DNA of 28,592 bases from Aestuariivirgaceae bacterium (GTDB lineage: Bacteria; Pseudomonadota; Alphaproteobacteria; Rhizobiales; Aestuariivirgaceae): assembly GCA_036554625.1 (NCBI GenBank), contig DATBMX010000456.1, positions 1-28,592 on the forward strand. Reading direction: 5' to 3'. The position numbers were made by a program, and so were the translations under genes. The notes below the pieces were generated by a model that saw nothing but the letters and a program-made list of their open reading frames with translations, was not told the origin of the DNA and made no database searches. Shown here piece after piece: positions 507 to 9,655 of this stretch (the stretch's first letter is position 1; every line of letters starts with the position of its first letter).

Positions 507-1301
507 TCAGTTCCGTCCCCGGAAAGGCCGCGCGATCAGCGACAGGAACGGCCTGTCGCTTTCCTGCTCCACGCCGATCCTGAGGTCGGGCGTCCTGATC
601 GTTGCGCTTCTGCTGGCAAAGAGGTGATCCCACACCGACAGGATGGTCGCATAGTTTGAATCCGTGTCGCGGCGAATGGCGTGGTGATGCACCCAGTGGA
701 TGGAGGGCGTCACCACCAGCATTGACAGGGCCCGCTCCAATCGTCCCGGCAGCTTCACATTCGAATGATGGAACATCGTGGCGAGCAGGAGCAGCGTTTC
801 GAACGCAACGACGCTCGTCAGGGGGATGGCGAGAGCGACAATGACGCCCGCCCGCACCACGGCCGACATCAGCACTTCGCCGAGATGGAAGCGCACGCCC
901 GAGGTGACGTCGAGAAACTGATCGAGATGATGCACCTCGTGAAACCGCCACAGGAACGGCACCTCGTGATTGGCGCGATGCCACCAATAGACCCACAGGT
1001 CGAGCAGGAGGAGATCGAAGGCAAGCCCTGCCGCGCCGTTGAGCCACAAGGGCCGCCAGTCGAGCGCCCAATCGCTTGCCGCCGCCGTGACGGGGATGAC
1101 GATGAGGGGAGAGAGAATGGCGTTAATTGCCGCGAAGCTCAAATTCTTGGCAAGCCTCAGCGCCCGCGCCAGGGCCTTCTCTGCGAGGCGTCCCAGAAGC
1201 GGCCTTGCCGCCGGGAACAGCCGTTCGAGCGCGAACAGCGCGGCGAAGGCGAAGAGCACGCCGCCCGCCTTGCCGGAGAGCATCTCGCTCAGCTGTTCCA
1301 T
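507..1301 (-). CDS. Sterol desaturase / fatty acid hydroxylase family membrane di-iron enzyme
   Basis: His boxes YWWHRANH, RFHEVHH, FHHSN, HWVHHH and NYATILSVWD. Start trimmed to MEQLSEML (1301), overlapping the AbrB stop by 13 nt. Confidence 0.9.
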   Translation of the reverse strand: MEQLSEMLSGKAGGVLFAFAALFALERLFPAARPLLGRLAEKALARALRLAKNLSFAAINAILSPLIVIPVTAAASDWALDWRPLWLNGAAGLAFDLLLLDLWVYWWHRANHEVPFLWRFHEVHHLDQFLDVTSGVRFHLGEVLMSAVVRAGVIVALAIPLTSVVAFETLLLLATMFHHSNVKLPGRLERALSMLVVTPSIHWVHHHAIRRDTDSNYATILSVWDHLFASRSATIRTPDLRIGVEQESDRPFLSLIARPFRGRN

Positions 1302-3156: not shown

Positions 3157-3222
3157 GTGCGGATTTCGCTCGAAGCTGTTGTCGTTGGGAGGGTGCCGGA
3201 CCTGACCATGCTTTCGAGCGTC

Positions 3223-3927
3223 TTACAAGCGCCGCCGCTGCAGGATGCGTTCCGCCACCATTTCCTGCAACCGCCACAGATAGTCGTCTCTGATGCCGGA
3301 AGCCGCCAGTGCGAGCACCGTCCGCCGCAGATATTCGGCGCAGCTGCCCCAATGGCCGCACGCGACCGAGAGAACGTCGGCGATCTCCTCCATCCCGAGG
3401 GTGCCGGCGTAATTCGGCCGCTCCCAATCGACGGTAAAGGCGATGGCGGTAACGGGTCCCCCTGGTCCCTCGACGGAAATCCAACGTGGCATATTGCCGG
3501 GCGGCTTCATGGTCATCTCGCGACGCCACAGCTTTGCGAGTTCGCTTCTCTCCCTTTCCACATGCAGGCGTTGCAGAAAGCCTTCGCAGCGGCCGCCCCT
3601 GTCGATCGCCATCATCAAACCCGGCTGTTCGCTCGTTCCGCGAAAACGCCGGATGCGCAGGCAGAAGGATCGCCGCCACCCTTCCGCTACGGCCCTCGTG
3701 CTGCCGGCATGTTCGAAGGCGGGTTTCCAGATGAGCGACCCATAGGCGAAGACGTGAAGCGCCCCCGGTGGCCGCTCGCGCAGGAAGTGGTCGAGATGCG
3801 TCTCATAGTCGCTCTCGCTGAAGACCTCTGTTTCGCTGTCATAGCCCTGGTCGGGAAGGTCGCGATGGACACAGCGCACCAGCTCTTCCGTGAGCCGCAA
3901 AGGCACGTCGACGTCGCTCATGCTCAA
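3223..3927 (-). CDS. chaC: ChaC-like gamma-glutamylcyclotransferase
   Basis: VFAYGSLIWKP, FRGTSEQPGLMMAID, LWRREM and GHWGSCAEYL motifs. Start is TTG 3927 or ATG 3921. Confidence 0.88.
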   Translation of the reverse strand: MSMSDVDVPLRLTEELVRCVHRDLPDQGYDSETEVFSESDYETHLDHFLRERPPGALHVFAYGSLIWKPAFEHAGSTRAVAEGWRRSFCLRIRRFRGTSEQPGLMMAIDRGGRCEGFLQRLHVERERSELAKLWRREMTMKPPGNMPRWISVEGPGGPVTAIAFTVDWERPNYAGTLGMEEIADVLSVACGHWGSCAEYLRRTVLALAASGIRDDYLWRLQEMVAERILQRRRL

Positions 3928-4031
3928 TCGTTAGCGACGGCTCGCCTGCGTCGCAAGCCGACAATGAAGAACCACCGCGGACGGCTTGGCAGCCGTTCGC
4001 GATGGCTTGATTGCGAAACTGGTCCCGTATT

Positions 4032-4307
4032 CTACGGCTGGGTGGTGCCAGTCGTCGAACCGCTCGGCTCCGGCTGCTCCGGCTGCGCCTGCGGTGCGGC
4101 TTCAGGAGCCGGCGCCGTTTCCGTCGTTGTCGTGGTCGTGCTGTTGTCGGGCGTGTTCACGGTCACGTTGTCAGCCCCGTTGGGACCCCATCCGAGACCC
4201 CATACGCCCACGCCGAGCAGCACCACAACGACCAGAATGATGCCGAGCACCATGCCGATTGTGGCATTGCCGCCGCCGTCACCAGGGTTGTTGATGTTTG
4301 TGGCCAT
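4032..4307 (-). CDS. Small single-pass membrane protein with Thr/Pro-rich tail (91 aa), hypothetical
   Basis: Start MATNINN at 4307 with GGAG upstream. One TM segment (IGMVLGIILVVVVLLGVGVWGLGW), then TTTTTTETAPAPEAAP tail. EcfG-type promoter directly upstream. Confidence 0.75.
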   Translation of the reverse strand: MATNINNPGDGGGNATIGMVLGIILVVVVLLGVGVWGLGWGPNGADNVTVNTPDNSTTTTTTETAPAPEAAPQAQPEQPEPSGSTTGTTQP

Positions 4308-4341
4308 TTCTTTCGCTCCAGCTGTTACGTCGCTGCTCCAA

Positions 4342-4366
4342 AACGCTTCTGCCCCGCTCAAGTTCC
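4342..4366 (-). promoter_or_regulatory. EcfG/sigmaT-type promoter for the 91-aa membrane protein
   Basis: Minus strand GGAAC-ttgagcggggcagaag(16)-CGTT. Confidence 0.75.
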
Positions 4367-4451
4367 CTGGCTGCCGAACTCGCTTTACGGAAACCTCTCG
4401 GCTAAACCGTTGTTGTTAACCATGGAATCCAAACCGTGAGCATCTTCCCAT

Positions 4452-4613: not shown

Positions 4614-4886
4614 ATGCTCCAACCTGGCACACAGCAGGCGATCGATCAGTCTCAGCTCGATAAGCTCCTCGATCTGATCGCCAAGGAAGGGATGGTCGAC
4701 CGCGCCAAGCTGTCGATGGACGCCACGATGGAGAGCCTGGGCCTCAAATCCTCCGACCTCCTCATTGTGCTGATGGCCGTGGAGGAGCAGTTCGGCGTCT
4801 ATATTCCCGTCGACGACAGCCTGTCCGACGCGCGCACGCTGGGCGATCTCGTCAACGCTCTCGCGGGCCACCTGCCGCATGGCTGA
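4614..4886 (+). CDS. Acyl carrier protein (NodF/AcpP-like) with atypical LGLKSSD motif
   Basis: 90 aa, acidic, LGLKSSDLLIVLMAVEEQFGVYIP and TLGDL helices. Stop overlaps the ketosynthase start (ATGGCTGA). Confidence 0.88.
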   Translation: MLQPGTQQAIDQSQLDKLLDLIAKEGMVDRAKLSMDATMESLGLKSSDLLIVLMAVEEQFGVYIPVDDSLSDARTLGDLVNALAGHLPHG

Positions 4887-6102
4887 CGGCGCGCACCGTC
4901 GCTGCGTCATTTCGGGGCTCGGCTGCGTCTCCGCCGCCGGCCATGGCGTGGCGGCCCTGTGGACCAAGGTGCGCGCCGGCGAAAGCGCCGTGAAGCCGCT
5001 ATGCCTGCCGCGCCTAGAGCATCAGCAGGTGAAGACGGCGGCGCACTTCCCCGGCTTCGATGCCGCATCCTGCCTCGACAAGCCGCTTGCCGATAGCACC
5101 GACCGCTTCACGCAATTCGCTTTGCTGGCCGCTGCCGAAGCGATAGGGCAAGCCCAGGCGCAAGCACCGCTCGTCTTCGGCGATCGCATGGGCGTGATCA
5201 TCGGCTCGGGGATAGGCGGCGCTGTCACCTCCGATGATCAGCACTACAAGTTCTACGTCGCCAAGACGCGCACCGACCCGATGACCATACCGCGCGTCAT
5301 GCCCAACGCCGCCGCATCTCACATCAGCATGCGTTATGGCGCCACCGGCCCCTGCTTTGCCGTGTCCAGCGCCTGTTCGTCGGCCTCACAGGCGATCGGC
5401 CTGGGCCTCCAGATGCTGCGCGCGCGACTGATCGACACTTGCATCGTCGGCGGCAGCGAGGCGCTGCTCGCTCCCGCCTTTTTCAGGGCCTGGGAGTCGC
5501 TTCGCGTGATGACGAGCACACTGTGCCGGCCCTTCTCGCGCAACCGCAACGGCATGGTTCTGGGAGAAGGGGCCGGTGTCCTGGTGATTGAAGCGGAAGA
5601 TGCCTGCCTGGCGCGCGGCGCACAGCCCCTGGCCCTTCTTGCGGGCTATGGAACCTCGAGCGATGCGCAAGACATCGTGCGCCCCGATGCGGAAGGCGCC
5701 GCGCGCAGCATGGCGCTTGCCTTGAGCGACGCCGGCCTCGAACCGCACGAGGTTGACTATGTCAATGCCCACGGCACGGGCACCATTCTCAATGACTCCT
5801 GCGAGAGTGCCGCCTTGACGAAGGTGTTCGGCCCCGGGTTGCCGGGCATCGCTGTCTCCTCGACAAAGCCCATCCATGGCCACACATTGGGCGCGGCCGG
5901 CGCCATCGAGCTGATCGTCGCGATTTGTGCGCTCCGAGAGCAGCTGGCGCCGCCGACGATCAACTGGCTCGAGGCCGATCCTTCTTGCATCGCCGATCCC
6001 GTTCCCAACGCTGCAAGGCCCCGCTCCATCGCCGCGGCTCTTTCAAATTCCTTCGCTTTCGGCGGCATCAATGCCTGTCTCGCCGTGACCGCCTATGCAT
6101 GA
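4879..6102 (+). CDS. Beta-ketoacyl-ACP synthase (FabF/NodE-like)
   Basis: Cys-His-His triad intact: SSACSSA, VNAHGTGT, KPIHGHTLGAAG. AWESLRV/CRPFS and NSFAFGG motifs recall the NodE subgroup. Confidence 0.93.
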   Translation: MADGAHRRCVISGLGCVSAAGHGVAALWTKVRAGESAVKPLCLPRLEHQQVKTAAHFPGFDAASCLDKPLADSTDRFTQFALLAAAEAIGQAQAQAPLVFGDRMGVIIGSGIGGAVTSDDQHYKFYVAKTRTDPMTIPRVMPNAAASHISMRYGATGPCFAVSSACSSASQAIGLGLQMLRARLIDTCIVGGSEALLAPAFFRAWESLRVMTSTLCRPFSRNRNGMVLGEGAGVLVIEAEDACLARGAQPLALLAGYGTSSDAQDIVRPDAEGAARSMALALSDAGLEPHEVDYVNAHGTGTILNDSCESAALTKVFGPGLPGIAVSSTKPIHGHTLGAAGAIELIVAICALREQLAPPTINWLEADPSCIADPVPNAARPRSIAAALSNSFAFGGINACLAVTAYA

Positions 6103-6490
6103 ACACAGGACGCCTGACACGTCTGAGACGCTGGGGTGCTTTGCGGTGACGGTGATCGCCGATGAGGTGGAAGCCTTCTGCGCGAGTCTTGCCTTGCCGC
6201 CATCGCCCGTGCCCCTGACCTTCGATATGTCCTTTCTGGCGAGAGAAGAGATCGCATTGGCCCTCCGCCAAAACCTGCCGCGTGACGGCATTGTCATCCA
6301 CCGCGCGCAGCGCTTCCGCGCCCATGCGCCGCTCGAGGTCGGCCGCGCCTACAAGCTCCAACTGCTGCGCCACGGCGTGAGGCCGCATGAACCCGTGATT
6401 CACGGCCGGATGCATGATGCGCAAGGCGCGCTGGTTCATGAGTTCTGGGCCACTCTCATGCTGCGTTCCCGCGATGAAGAACCTGCGTAG
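6095..6490 (+). CDS. Hot-dog fold protein (MaoC_dehydrat_N / HadA-like accessory dehydratase subunit)
   Basis: IHRAQRFRAHAPLEVG resembles the H-x-x-Q-x-F...P-L-x-x-G segment of MaoC N-type hot-dogs. Coupled to both neighbours (8-nt and 17-nt overlaps). Confidence 0.6.
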   Translation: MHEHRTPDTSETLGCFAVTVIADEVEAFCASLALPPSPVPLTFDMSFLAREEIALALRQNLPRDGIVIHRAQRFRAHAPLEVGRAYKLQLLRHGVRPHEPVIHGRMHDAQGALVHEFWATLMLRSRDEEPA

Positions 6491-6872
6491 CGACACAGGC
6501 GTTGCGCCCCTTTGCTTGGGCCCGATCACCCTCGATCAGCTTCATCGCTATGCGCAGGCCTCGGGCGATCGCAATCCCATCCATGTAAGCCCCGCCGCCG
6601 CCGCCGAGGCCGGCCTCAGGGCGCCCATCGCCCATGGCATGTTCATCCTCGGGCAGTTCGAGAGGCTCATTCGCCAATGGCGGCCCGCCTGCCGCATCGA
6701 AAGTTTGAACGCTCATTTCCTGCGCCCGCTCTATATTGGCGATTCGCTTGTGGTAGGCGCGCGTCGAGCCTCGCGTGACACTGGCATGACTTGCGCTTTG
6801 CGGCTTATCGCCGAGAATTCGGCGGGGGAGATCGTTGCAATCGGTGAGGCGACGATCGTCGGCGGAGGCTGA
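6474..6872 (+). CDS. MaoC-like (R)-specific dehydratase (HadB-like catalytic subunit)
   Basis: Hydratase-2 motif RYAQASGDRNPIH...IAHGM and FLRPLYIGD. Start trimmed to ATG 6474. Confidence 0.88.
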   Translation: MKNLRSDTGVAPLCLGPITLDQLHRYAQASGDRNPIHVSPAAAAEAGLRAPIAHGMFILGQFERLIRQWRPACRIESLNAHFLRPLYIGDSLVVGARRASRDTGMTCALRLIAENSAGEIVAIGEATIVGGG

Positions 6873-6883
6873 AGGAGAACAAC

Positions 6884-7699
6884 ATGCGTTTGTCCGGCAA
6901 GATCGCTCTCGTCACGGGAGGAAATTCGGGCATCGGCCGCGGCATCGTTCATCGCTTCATCAGGGAGGGAGCAGAGGTCGCTTTCGTCGGCCGGGACGCC
7001 GGAAAATGCGAGCGCGTCGCCGAGGAGGCGAAGGTGCTGGGCGGCAAATCCTGCTTCTTTGTCCTCGATCTCGGCGATGAAGGCGCCGTCGCGCAGCTGA
7101 TCGATGATCTGGGCCGCCGCTTCGGCCGTCTCGACATTCTCGTCAACAATGCCGGCCTCGGCAGCAGGCGCGCCGAGATTGCAGCGTCTGACCGGCCGGG
7201 CAAGCGATGGGACAAGCTGCGCGCGCCCAATCTTGACTCCGCCTATTTCACATCGGCCTATGGCCTGCCCTTGCTCAAAATGTCGAGGAAGGCTTCGATA
7301 GTGAATGTCTCGTCGACAGCCGCGCTGCATGGCAACTGGGGCCTTTATGGCGTCGCCAAGGCGGGCGTCGAGGCTCTGACCCGCGCGCTTGCCGCGGAGG
7401 GCGCACCGCACGGGATCCGCGTCAATTGCGTAAGCCCCGGCTGGATCGGCACGGACACTGACGCGGTCGAGCCTGCGTCCGGCACGCCGACGGGCGAATG
7501 GCGGCTGCCGCCTTCCCTCTTGGGCCGCATCGGCGCTCCGGAAGAGATTGCCGCGGCTGTGCTCTTCCTGGCGAGCGATGACGCGAGCTTCGTCACGGGC
7601 CAGACGCTCATCGTCGACGGCGGCCTGAGCATCACGGACTACACCTCCCTCCCCCTCCTTTCCCGGATGGGTGCCAAGCTCTTCTCGGGCGCGGTTTGA
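6884..7699 (+). CDS. Classical SDR oxidoreductase (FabG-like, probably NADP-dependent)
   Basis: TGGNSGIGRG, NNAG, NVSS, YGVAK, NCVSPG and GQTLIVDGG motifs. AAGGAG RBS; 11 nt after the MaoC gene. Confidence 0.92.
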   Translation: MRLSGKIALVTGGNSGIGRGIVHRFIREGAEVAFVGRDAGKCERVAEEAKVLGGKSCFFVLDLGDEGAVAQLIDDLGRRFGRLDILVNNAGLGSRRAEIAASDRPGKRWDKLRAPNLDSAYFTSAYGLPLLKMSRKASIVNVSSTAALHGNWGLYGVAKAGVEALTRALAAEGAPHGIRVNCVSPGWIGTDTDAVEPASGTPTGEWRLPPSLLGRIGAPEEIAAAVLFLASDDASFVTGQTLIVDGGLSITDYTSLPLLSRMGAKLFSGAV

Positions 7700-7707
7700 T
7701 GGAGGTT

Positions 7708-7809
7708 CGTCATCGCGGCCTTGCATCCGGCCGTCTCGTGCCACATGCGAGAGATCACCAGGTCAAGCCCGGTGATGACGATCAACAACCGGGGCTTGAC
7801 CCGGCCATC
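7708..7809. repeat. Degenerate REP-like palindromic element (GGCTTGACCCGG family)
   Basis: Decayed left arm 7708-7737, right arm gagatcaccaggtcaagcccggtgatgacg 7751-7780, extra left arm ccggggcttgacccggccatc 7789-7809. Confidence 0.65.
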
Positions 7810-7873
7810 TTCCCAAAATAGCCAGTGCCGTTCCGGCGCTTTCATGAGTCGCGCCCAACAGTCGGAATGGAAC

Positions 7874-9655
7874 ATGAGAATCGGCAAGAGGTTCACAACG
7901 ATTATCCCCGATTTGTCCGCCACCCTGGCCCGTTTCCCCGGTCCCGCGGTTGCGTCTCTCATCATGTGCGTGGTTGCCAATCTCGCAGTCGCAGAAGAGA
8001 ATTTCGCCGACGACCAATTTTACAGTGATGCTCTGTGGGGTGGGGCCGCCGCCTTCATCGCGAGTGGGTCAGCACATCTGTTTGCCGAGTCCAGGGGTTG
8101 GACAGCGAGCAGAAACAATACTTTCAGCCTTCTGACCGGCCTCGCAGCAGCAGTCATTTTTTTGCTTCACCGCGAATTGGGTGTCGACCGATGGTTCTCG
8201 ACGGTCGGGCTCGTCCTTCTGTTGATGACAGCAGCCTATCTGCGCCCCGGGGCGAGCCAGGCCGCCTTTTGGCTGTTCAACCTGCGACTTGGGTTGGCTG
8301 CCATCCTCGCGGGTCTTGTGACGGCCGCCGCCTGTGGTGGCGTTTCTGCCATCCTGGCCAGCCTGGAGTTTTTGTTCGAGATCAAGATGCATGGCGATCT
8401 CTATCAGCATGTGTGGTCCACCGGCGTGACCTTGCTCGGGCCGATTTATGGATTGGCGCTCACGCCAGCCGTTCTCGATGAAGAGGTTGACCTCGACAAC
8501 TATCGCGACTCCCTGCTCGAGCGCGGCGTATCCGTGCTTCTCACCTATATCCTGATACCGCTCGTCCTCATCTACACCGCCATCCTCTATGCCTACGCAG
8601 CCAGAATCGCTCTCGCCTGGACCTTGCCGAAGGGCCAGATCGCGACTCTCGTGACGCTGTTCGCTCTCGCCGGCACAGCCGCCTATCTGATCTCCTATCC
8701 TTGGCGAAGCCGTGGAACGGCACTGCTCAGGATGTTTCGGTCCGCCTGGTTTCCACTGACCATCATACCTGTTGTACTCCTCGTCATCGGCACTTGGCGG
8801 CGGATCCATGACTATGGGATCACGCCTGAGCGTTATGCTTTGGTTGCCATCGCTGCCTGGCTCATTGGCTTGATTGTCGTCTTCGTCCACCGGCGGCGCT
8901 CGATCGACATCAGGTATATCGTCGCAAGTTTCGGCGCGGTGGCGCTTGTAACGTCCATCGGCCCCTGGGGCGCACGCACGCTATCCATGACCGATCAGTT
9001 TGGCCGGTTGGAGACGCTGCTCAGCAGGCATGGGTTTCTGATAAACGGCAGGATCCCCGATACGACGCCTCCTCCCGCCGCCATGGCCGACGATGAACGC
9101 GAAACAGCGGGTTCGATCGTTCATTTTCTGGTCGACCGGGAGGAGCATGAACGTTTTCGGCCATGGTTTGCAGGACGCATGGCCGATCCATGGAAAAGAA
9201 GTGACTTTAAACCGTCTTTTGTCGCTGAAACTCTGATCAGCATCGTCGGCTATCGACATAGGGAGACGCCGGGCAACAATCAGCAGGTGAGTTTTGACGC
9301 CTCGGTGCCCCTGACCTTCTCGCCTGCGGCGGGAAATGTGATTGCCGGGCCCATCAAATTGCGTCGTGGGACCAGGCAGCAGCTTGAACAGTCTCCTCGC
9401 GTTCTCGGCATCGAGAATAGGGGGTCCGCCTTGGCCATACTTCATGGCGACCGCACATGGCTGATCAAGACGAGCGACCTCTTGGCGCAGGCCGTCGATG
9501 TTGACGCGTTGCCTTCCTCCCGGCCTCCATTGTCGATCACGCTTGGCGAGCCTCCCGAACGGATGACGTTGATTGTGGACCAGCTGTACGGCGAGTTCGA
9601 TCGAGGACAAGCCAAGGTTCATTCTGGACAGTTTTGGCTGGTACTGCCGCAGTAA
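7874..9655 (+). CDS. DUF4153-family multi-pass membrane protein
   Basis: About 11 TM segments with YILIPLVLIYTAILYAY and RRIHDYGITPERY motifs, then a soluble C-terminal domain. Start trimmed to ATG 7874 because the ORF-track start lies inside the REP. Confidence 0.8.
   Translation: MRIGKRFTTIIPDLSATLARFPGPAVASLIMCVVANLAVAEENFADDQFYSDALWGGAAAFIASGSAHLFAESRGWTASRNNTFSLLTGLAAAVIFLLHRELGVDRWFSTVGLVLLLMTAAYLRPGASQAAFWLFNLRLGLAAILAGLVTAAACGGVSAILASLEFLFEIKMHGDLYQHVWSTGVTLLGPIYGLALTPAVLDEEVDLDNYRDSLLERGVSVLLTYILIPLVLIYTAILYAYAARIALAWTLPKGQIATLVTLFALAGTAAYLISYPWRSRGTALLRMFRSAWFPLTIIPVVLLVIGTWRRIHDYGITPERYALVAIAAWLIGLIVVFVHRRRSIDIRYIVASFGAVALVTSIGPWGARTLSMTDQFGRLETLLSRHGFLINGRIPDTTPPPAAMADDERETAGSIVHFLVDREEHERFRPWFAGRMADPWKRSDFKPSFVAETLISIVGYRHRETPGNNQQVSFDASVPLTFSPAAGNVIAGPIKLRRGTRQQLEQSPRVLGIENRGSALAILHGDRTWLIKTSDLLAQAVDVDALPSSRPPLSITLGEPPERMTLIVDQLYGEFDRGQAKVHSGQFWLVLPQ

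Follow-up and report, generated by a model that had tools for sequence, protein, structure and literature searches.

A NodFE-related acyl-chain operon near the sphingolipid core of an Aestuariivirgaceae bacterium

For which lipid does a bacterium keep a compact operon of acyl-chain genes, when its housekeeping fatty acid synthesis is already complete? The question is raised by a stretch of 28,592 nucleotides from an Aestuariivirgaceae bacterium (NCBI GenBank assembly GCA_036554625.1, contig DATBMX010000456.1), which is called the window below. At positions 4614-7699 of its plus strand lie five co-directional genes, encoding an acyl carrier protein (ACP), a beta-ketoacyl-ACP synthase (KS), two small proteins named DH1 and DH2, and a short-chain dehydrogenase/reductase (SDR). 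ACP and KS overlap by 8 nt, KS and DH1 also by 8 nt, and DH1 and DH2 by 17 nt, while DH2 and SDR are 11 nt apart. A first-pass annotation, which had called the operon NodF/NodE-like and its product a chain of unknown destination, gave exactly these positions, overlaps and gap.

On balance, the operon is best read as a dedicated NodFE-related module that delivers a special acyl-ACP, with the sphingolipid pathway as its likeliest consumer in this organism. This reading is preferred with modest confidence. The sphingolipid pathway is put first because of where the operon is located, and because the genome has no dedicated PlsC acyltransferase: its one PlsC homologue lies away from the operon. The destination of the chain is thus narrowed, both by the adjoining sphingolipid genes and by the acyltransferase genes found upstream in related loci; the exact acceptor is still inferred.

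That the operon is an extra set is clear from the rest of the genome. Type II fatty acid synthesis (FAS II) is complete elsewhere, with fabD-fabG-acpP-fabF on contig C224, fabA-fabB-fabI on C130 and fabZ on C61.

For bacterial sphingolipid synthesis, the core enzymes have become known only in recent years. In this genome, contig C303 carries Spt (serine palmitoyltransferase), AcpR, a CerR-like reductase, and an AasR gene that is cut at the contig end. Spt reaches 595 bits with NF047599, whose cut-off is 500. AasR is the acyl-ACP synthetase of the pathway. Its missing N-terminus is encoded on the minus strand of the window, in the first 234 bases. The 78-residue fragment matches three reference Spt clusters (E 1e-16; identities in Table 1) and aligns exactly upstream of the AasR part on C303. 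It has no Pfam match, and C303 and C276 showed no overlapping sequence at their ends. The adjacency of C303 and the window is based on the split AasR gene and on synteny with a 74%-identical metagenomic relative. There, a single contig holds Spt-AcpR-CerR-AasR, a fatty-acid hydroxylase and TerC, followed by ACP-KS-DH1-DH2-SDR.

With the N-terminus of AasR at the left end of the window, the distance from the operon to the sphingolipid core is 4.4 kb. As in proteobacterial sphingolipid loci, Spt, AcpR, CerR and AasR are contiguous, and the genome holds a homologue of the bacterial ceramide synthase. The gene next to AasR encodes a fatty-acid hydroxylase family enzyme (507-1301) with weak similarity to OlsE. 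It stands in the same place in the 91%- and 74%-identical relatives, and is a probable lipid-tailoring enzyme.

The operon is also not a one-off. The order ACP-KS-DH1-DH2, called the cassette here, is found in about 12 loci from roughly 10 lineages, and this recurrence argues against a chance arrangement. Carriers are metagenomic relatives at 91%, 75% and 74% identity, Stappia, Aestuariivirga, several metagenome-assembled genomes (MAGs) of Hyphomicrobiales, Rhodobiaceae and Methylocella, and further metagenome contigs. The gene set is thus conserved, a point on which the first-pass annotation had made its reading depend. A literature search found no paper describing an ACP-KS-DH1-DH2(-SDR) cassette. 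The operon is apparently what that annotation took it for, an undescribed system, and more precisely a dedicated type II acyl-chain system of the NodFE or AcpXL kind.

Not every related locus has all five genes. An ACP homologue precedes the KS in all of them. The SDR gene follows DH2 in the 74% relative and is fragmented in the 75% relative; the 91% relative has an SDR-sized gene without recorded Pfam hits at this place, and the Methylocella locus a distant SDR-like match. The genes that accompany the KS come in four combinations: none (loci L001 and L083), the SDR (L085, L088, L090), DH1/DH2 (L003, L004, L006), and DH1/DH2 plus SDR (the window and L005).

A sample of 300 alphaproteobacterial genomes was used for the co-occurrence of KS relatives with Spt, where G040 (unpublished) contributes only a FabF-level hit. 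A broad association between the two was considered and rejected. In 21 of the 300 genomes there is a KS of 43-51% identity, carried by another cassette, mostly one with an LpxD-like gene, and Spt is present in 2 of these 21. The cassette of the window itself occurs in none of the 300. The sample is uninformative for the cassette for these two reasons.

What stands directly upstream of ACP-KS in related loci is more telling of the consumer. A bacterial ceramide synthase, bCerS, has been described (PMC11087976, PMC11324152). In eight loci (L001, L003, L004, L006, L083, L085, L087, L088) a 372-aa GNAT-type protein is encoded 60-120 nt upstream of ACP-KS, in the same direction. Among the 300 genomes this protein is found in 42 and Spt in 41, with 40 shared, and the homologue is usually on the Spt contig, 1-17 kb apart. 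A profile that matches Spt, and nearness to it, is how bCerS behaves, and the GNAT-type protein is taken as a bCerS homologue by its co-occurrence and proximity. In three genomes the copy next to the cassette is the sole bCerS homologue. GT21 (ceramide-glucosyltransferase-family) genes and Spt or Spt-like genes are found in or near the bCerS-linked loci.

Two side observations belong to these loci. Soil metagenome contigs L085, L088 and L090 have the order bCerS-like-ACP-KS-SDR-GT21, with a reductase and no dehydratase; in L088 and L090 Spt is found downstream of this variant operon, on the opposite strand. The variant suggests 3-hydroxy N-acyl glycosphingolipids. In addition, a Methylocella MAG (G304, contigs C34 and C8) has two separate pairs of an alpha-oxoamine synthase and a bCerS homologue, one of them on the 14-kb contig of the cassette.

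How close is the operon to NodF and NodE? A KS tree of 70 rows was computed with IQ-TREE under LG+C20, with ultrafast bootstrap and SH-aLRT supports, in addition to an earlier quick tree. NodE is represented from three rhizobial sym plasmids. The window KS sits in a clade of cassette-linked KSs with support 100/99. This clade is nested in a 100/100 superclade together with NodE, a large group of synthases from LpxD-like-ACP-KS cassettes, a KS from a Xanthomonas sacchari plasmid and a second KS of this genome, on contig C427. NodE forms a 100/100 clade of its own, and the two clades are not sisters. Housekeeping FabF, both the genome's own and that of E. coli, is outside the superclade in both trees.

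Because it shares the superclade with NodE while FabF falls outside, the window KS can be classed, by its sequence, as NodE-like in a broad sense, and as neither FabF nor NodE proper. The label NodF/NodE-like of the first-pass annotation holds at the level of the superclade, but not for the NodE clade; that the KS does not group with housekeeping FabF agrees with it. Identities of the KS are 41-45% to NodE and 35-42% to alphaproteobacterial FabF.

Profile scores give the same picture. Against TIGR03150 (fabF) the KS scores 392, with a cut-off of 493.75, and it is also under every other NCBIfam KS equivalog cut-off. ApeO and FabF-XL are not among the references of the tree, and NCBIfam cut-offs stood in for these two comparisons. 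The KS scores 237 against a cut-off of 629 for PRK06501 and 40 against 320 for PRK06519, and is under the cut-offs of PRK09116, PRK09185 and PRK07103, which served as the check for aryl-polyene and type II polyketide synthase (PKS) enzymes. With a single KS, no chain-length factor (CLF) and scores below the respective models, the layout is neither that of AcpXL nor that of aryl polyenes, as had been noted before. A second KS, FabZ and LpxXL are absent from the window by gene calls and Pfam, and Pfam finds no other PKS-type genes in it.

The catalytic residues of the KS are in place: Cys166, His298, His335, Lys330 and the FAFGG gate all align with E. coli FabF. It is predicted to be an elongating Cys-His-His synthase of the thiolase fold. 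The ACP has an isoelectric point of 4.3, and its Ser46 aligns with the phosphopantetheine-bearing serine of the DSL motif, here KSS, of E. coli AcpP and NodF. It scores under every NCBIfam ACP cut-off.

The SDR has TGxxxGIG, NNAG and Ser144/Tyr155/Lys159, and extends by some 20 aa at its C-terminus. It is 36-37% identical to E. coli FabG and to the genome's own FabG, and 33% to the FabG in NodG position of M. huakuii. Its scores are under the NCBIfam cut-offs for FabG (187 against 332 and 174 against 297.75). It is probably a 3-oxoacyl-ACP reductase.

The two DH proteins had been counted as two dehydratases. DH2 carries the hydratase-2 motif YAQASGDRNPIH, including the catalytic Asp and His. 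Its PDB matches are PhaJ, the C-terminal half of HtdX, and HadB, and there are weak NCBIfam matches to HadB and to fused HadA/HadB models. The start of DH2 at the ATG at 6474 gives the same length as that called in the 91%-identical relative, 132 aa. DH1 has no Pfam match and lacks the hydratase-2 motif. Its alignment-based AlphaFold2 model (pLDDT, the predicted local distance difference test score, 91.5) has a hot-dog fold, for which Foldseek returns HadA (4rlt_A) as best match and then HadBC (5zy8). The DH1 family profile matches residues 13-112 of HtdX, its N-terminal half, with E 3e-7. Also, the 280-aa protein P0140 is a natural DH1-DH2 fusion.

From the fold model, the HadA match, the HtdX match and the fusion, DH1 and DH2 are predicted to be one split double-hot-dog (3R)-hydroxyacyl dehydratase of the HtdX/HadAB type, a heterodimer in which DH1 would be structural and DH2 catalytic. 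This means that of the enzyme set first proposed, the carrier, the KS, a dehydratase and a FabG-like SDR stand, but the dehydratases probably number one and not two: only DH2 has the catalytic motif, and DH1 would be its hot-dog partner. The DH1 family is rare, with 32 representatives among 1.8 billion proteins. A hidden Markov model of DH1 finds a copy between KS and DH2 in loci of nine other lineages, and no second copy in the window's own genome.

By prediction, the operon encodes all processing of the beta-carbon except enoyl reduction. By Pfam and NCBIfam annotation of its genes, it has no enoyl reductase, no second KS or CLF and no acyltransferase, in agreement with the first-pass annotation. 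Coordinates are given in Table 1.

Table 1. Features of the window that bear on the operon and its surroundings.
Feature	Position	Strand	Size and evidence
Dedicated ACP	4614-4886	+	90 aa; PF00550 (PP-binding) 30.7 bits
Elongating beta-ketoacyl-ACP synthase (KS), predicted	4879-6102	+	407 aa; PF00109 + PF02801 (ketoacyl-synt N, C)
DH1, non-catalytic hot-dog partner (predicted)	6095-6490	+	131 aa; fold model, profile, fusion
DH2, putative catalytic MaoC / hydratase-2 subunit	6474-6872	+	132 aa; PF01575 (MaoC_dehydratas) 69.8 bits
Classical SDR, probably 3-oxoacyl-ACP reductase	6884-7699	+	271 aa; PF13561 (adh_short_C2) 203.9 bits
AasR N-terminal 78 residues	1-234	-	51-55% identity to AasR of reference Spt clusters
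Fatty-acid hydroxylase family membrane enzyme	507-1301	-	264 aa; PF04116; His boxes
ChaC	3223-3927	-	upstream of operon
109-aa membrane-protein open reading frame	4032-4361	-	upstream of operon
DUF4153 membrane protein	7721-9655	+	PF13687; starts 21 nt after SDR gene

What would such an operon do? FabD would malonylate the dedicated ACP, and the KS would condense an acyl chain from FAS with the malonyl-ACP. The SDR would reduce the 3-oxo group, and DH1/DH2 would dehydrate the product to a trans-2-enoyl-ACP. A membrane-lipid acyltransferase would then take either the 2-enoyl chain directly, or the elongated chain after the action of FabI. The acceptor would here most likely be bCerS, adding the chain as the N-acyl of a sphingolipid; bCerS is more likely than Spt to be the enzyme that takes it.

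A wider proposal is offered tentatively, and as it stands is rather doubtful. Some Proteobacteria may program the N-acyl chain of ceramide by a NodFE-like ACP and KS, where accessory genes would set the state of the beta-carbon, and where bCerS would take a dedicated acyl-ACP and not an acyl-CoA. A KS alone would then give 3-oxo or 3-hydroxy chains, KS and SDR would give 3-hydroxy chains, and KS with the split dehydratase, with or without SDR, would give 2-enoyl chains. If this is true, the organism of the window makes alpha,beta-unsaturated or extended N-acyl sphingolipids. Both the origin of the N-acyl chain and the donor used by bCerS (acyl-CoA or acyl-ACP) are open in the field, and an operon of ACP, KS, dehydratase and bCerS would be a concrete, testable source for that chain. 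On this proposal, ceramides whose acyl chains are out of the ordinary should be present in Alphaproteobacteria of soil and sea.

Several facts weigh against the sphingolipid pathway as the consumer. By its sequence, the operon could have a 2-enoyl, an elongated or a 3-hydroxy chain as product. The source genome is a MAG, only 84% complete, in which the bCerS homologue has its place on a separate contig, C335. Between the operon and AasR lie four or five minus-strand genes with no apparent relation to them (AbrB, TerC, ChaC, the 109-aa open reading frame). L032, a member of the window's own KS subclade, has sugar-nucleotide genes upstream instead. In the KS trees the nearest cassette relatives outside this subclade are PlsC-linked, and the bCerS-linked cassettes branch deeper. 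Finally, Caulobacter is able to make ceramide with no cassette of this kind (PMC11324152).

The intervening genes and the PlsC-linked relatives also favour the best of the alternatives, in which the module feeds a glycerolipid or other non-sphingoid membrane lipid through a PlsC-type acyltransferase, and the nearness to sphingolipid genes is a coincidence. In Stappia, Aestuariivirga, L033 and L077, a PlsC-family acyltransferase takes the upstream position, giving PlsC-ACP-KS-DH1-DH2. Several of these PlsC-linked loci carry Frag1 and/or a CDP-alcohol phosphatidyltransferase, and Aestuariivirga and L033 have an inositol-1-phosphate synthase. No bCerS homologue was found in Stappia. But Stappia has an extra PlsC paralogue for the upstream position of its cassette, while the single PlsC of the window's genome is not adjacent to the operon. 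Also, in three members of the window's own subclade the operon is still found next to the Spt core. A glycerolipid destination is judged unlikely here.

PlsC-linked cassettes are also seen in two islands (L024:6854-14603 and L033:4951-17456), with inositol-1-phosphate synthase, CTP_transf_1 and SDR genes. The L033 island has in addition CDP-alcohol phosphatidyltransferases, PgpA, a fatty-acid desaturase and an LptF/LptG paralogue. Their gene content points to the synthesis of an envelope lipid that contains inositol.

A second alternative stays within sphingolipids: the acyl-ACP would be condensed with serine by Spt, setting the long-chain base and not the N-acyl chain. Proteobacterial Spt does prefer acyl-ACP over acyl-CoA (PMC9386255), and the operon adjoins Spt-AcpR-CerR-AasR. 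Moreover, in those bCerS-linked loci that were examined, the Spt-like gene was not accompanied by any detected homologue of AcpR or AasR. Yet the genome already has a dedicated AcpR/AasR pair for Spt, and in the eight loci described above ACP-KS is directly behind bCerS, not Spt. This makes Spt a quite improbable recipient, and bCerS is kept as the preferred one.

A third alternative develops the reading of the first-pass annotation, an unsaturated or polyene chain: a NodFE-like or polyene pathway would lead to a polyunsaturated chain for a secreted signal or pigment. In its favour are the superclade that the KS shares with NodE, the missing enoyl reductase, and the nodA-nodF-nodE-fabG order of Mesorhizobium as a comparable layout of ACP, KS and ketoreductase. 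The polyene idea finds no specific support, however: there is one KS and no CLF, and the genome has a complete housekeeping set of FabI, FabZ and FabA, so that FabI is available for the missing step. As that annotation had also stated, there are no nod genes; homologues of NodA, NodB and NodC are absent from the 84%-complete genome (E 1e-3) and from the window. The neighbours of the cassette are membrane-lipid genes in all lineages. A secreted signal or pigment is thus an outcome to be expected still less than a chain for Spt.

That the five genes are merely redundant housekeeping paralogues with no dedicated product is highly implausible, since, although all five proteins are of FAS II-type families, the KS is outside FabF (100/100), the ACP is under all AcpP cut-offs, FAS II is complete elsewhere and the DH1 family is as rare as noted above.

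Some details of the surroundings remain to be given. The minus-strand genes upstream of the operon are the 109-aa open reading frame, ChaC, TerC, AbrB and the fatty-acid hydroxylase. A 420-aa open reading frame at 3157-4419 on the plus strand was rejected as a gene: it has no homologues, overlaps ChaC and the 109-aa frame on the minus strand, and is an artefact of high GC content. For the operon, neither a sigma-70 promoter nor a clear terminator came to light. The window has 8 EcfG-type motifs, against 0.5 expected by chance. The only one near the operon, an exact match (GGAAC-N16-CGTT at 4342-4366, minus strand), overlaps the start region of the 109-aa frame and faces away from the ACP operon. 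Downstream, the DUF4153 gene is outside the conserved cassette. Its absence from the position after the SDR in the 91%- and 74%-identical relatives suggests a recent insertion.

Other ACP-KS pairs of the superclade were seen along the way. The genome of the window has a second dedicated pair on C427 (G000, L026:137-4535), with a KS 42% identical to that of the window and an ACP that is the best NodF match in the genome. The gene of a long-chain AMP-binding enzyme adjoins it and is divergently transcribed. The closest KS not from a cassette, at 52% identity, is in an ACP-KS pair on the Xanthomonas sacchari plasmid NZ_CP010410.1 (441994-443514; L029). GNAT, an arginase-family protein, two aminotransferases and EamA transporters flank this pair, which is possibly a cluster for an N-acyl amino compound.

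The cassette of an LpxD-like N-acyltransferase, ACP and KS is found in 16 of 21 alphaproteobacterial genomes, those among the 300 sampled for which the best KS hit other than FabF was looked at, and also on Paracoccus chromids (L031, L034-L052, L069). The other 5 have ACP-KS without a detected LpxD-like gene. Its KS is in the same superclade as NodE. The cassette has no dehydratase, and so fits a donor of 3-hydroxyacyl chains. To our knowledge, it has not been described.

How does the operon compare with known systems? Its predicted split dehydratase resembles HadAB/HadBC and HtdX (Rv0241c) of mycobacterial FAS-II, where a catalytic MaoC hot-dog with the hydratase-2 motif has a non-catalytic hot-dog partner. 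Sequence identity is only 12-20% however, the host is proteobacterial, and the dehydratase genes go with those of a NodE-like KS and an ACP, and not with KasA/AcpM.

The AcpXL cluster for the very-long-chain fatty acid of rhizobial lipid A is similar in plan, in that a dedicated ACP and KS supply one outer-membrane lipid acyltransferase with a special acyl chain. Unlike that cluster, the operon has no FabZXL, second KS or LpxXL, and its dehydratase is of the MaoC type and not of the FabZ type.

The tie to the bacterial sphingolipid core pathway of Caulobacter and other Proteobacteria is physical: the window continues into the Spt/AcpR/CerR/AasR cluster. The described sphingolipid gene clusters contain no KS or dehydratase genes, and a dedicated module for the N-acyl chain is not reported in them (PMC11324152, PMC9386255, PMC11087976).

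A close parallel is NodF/NodE(/NodG). In both, the gene of a dedicated ACP overlaps that of a Cys-His-His KS downstream, the KS belongs to one and the same superclade, and there is no enoyl reductase of its own; the product goes to a partner N-acyltransferase in NodF/NodE, and would do so here. Some rhizobia add a FabG-like reductase, as in nodA-nodF-nodE-fabG of Mesorhizobium. The operon differs by its own, predicted split MaoC dehydratase, by the lack of nodABC and by a KS in a separate clade. The partners also differ: NodA for NodF/NodE, and bCerS-like or PlsC-like lipid acyltransferases for the cassette. Across the superclade the recurring unit is acyltransferase-ACP-KS, where the acyltransferase is NodA, LpxD-like, bCerS-like, PlsC or GNAT. 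Most simply read, every ACP-KS pair serves one acyltransferase, for which it makes one special acyl chain on a carrier of its own. More widely, NodFE seems to be a single branch of a larger family that tailors single acyl chains of envelope lipids.

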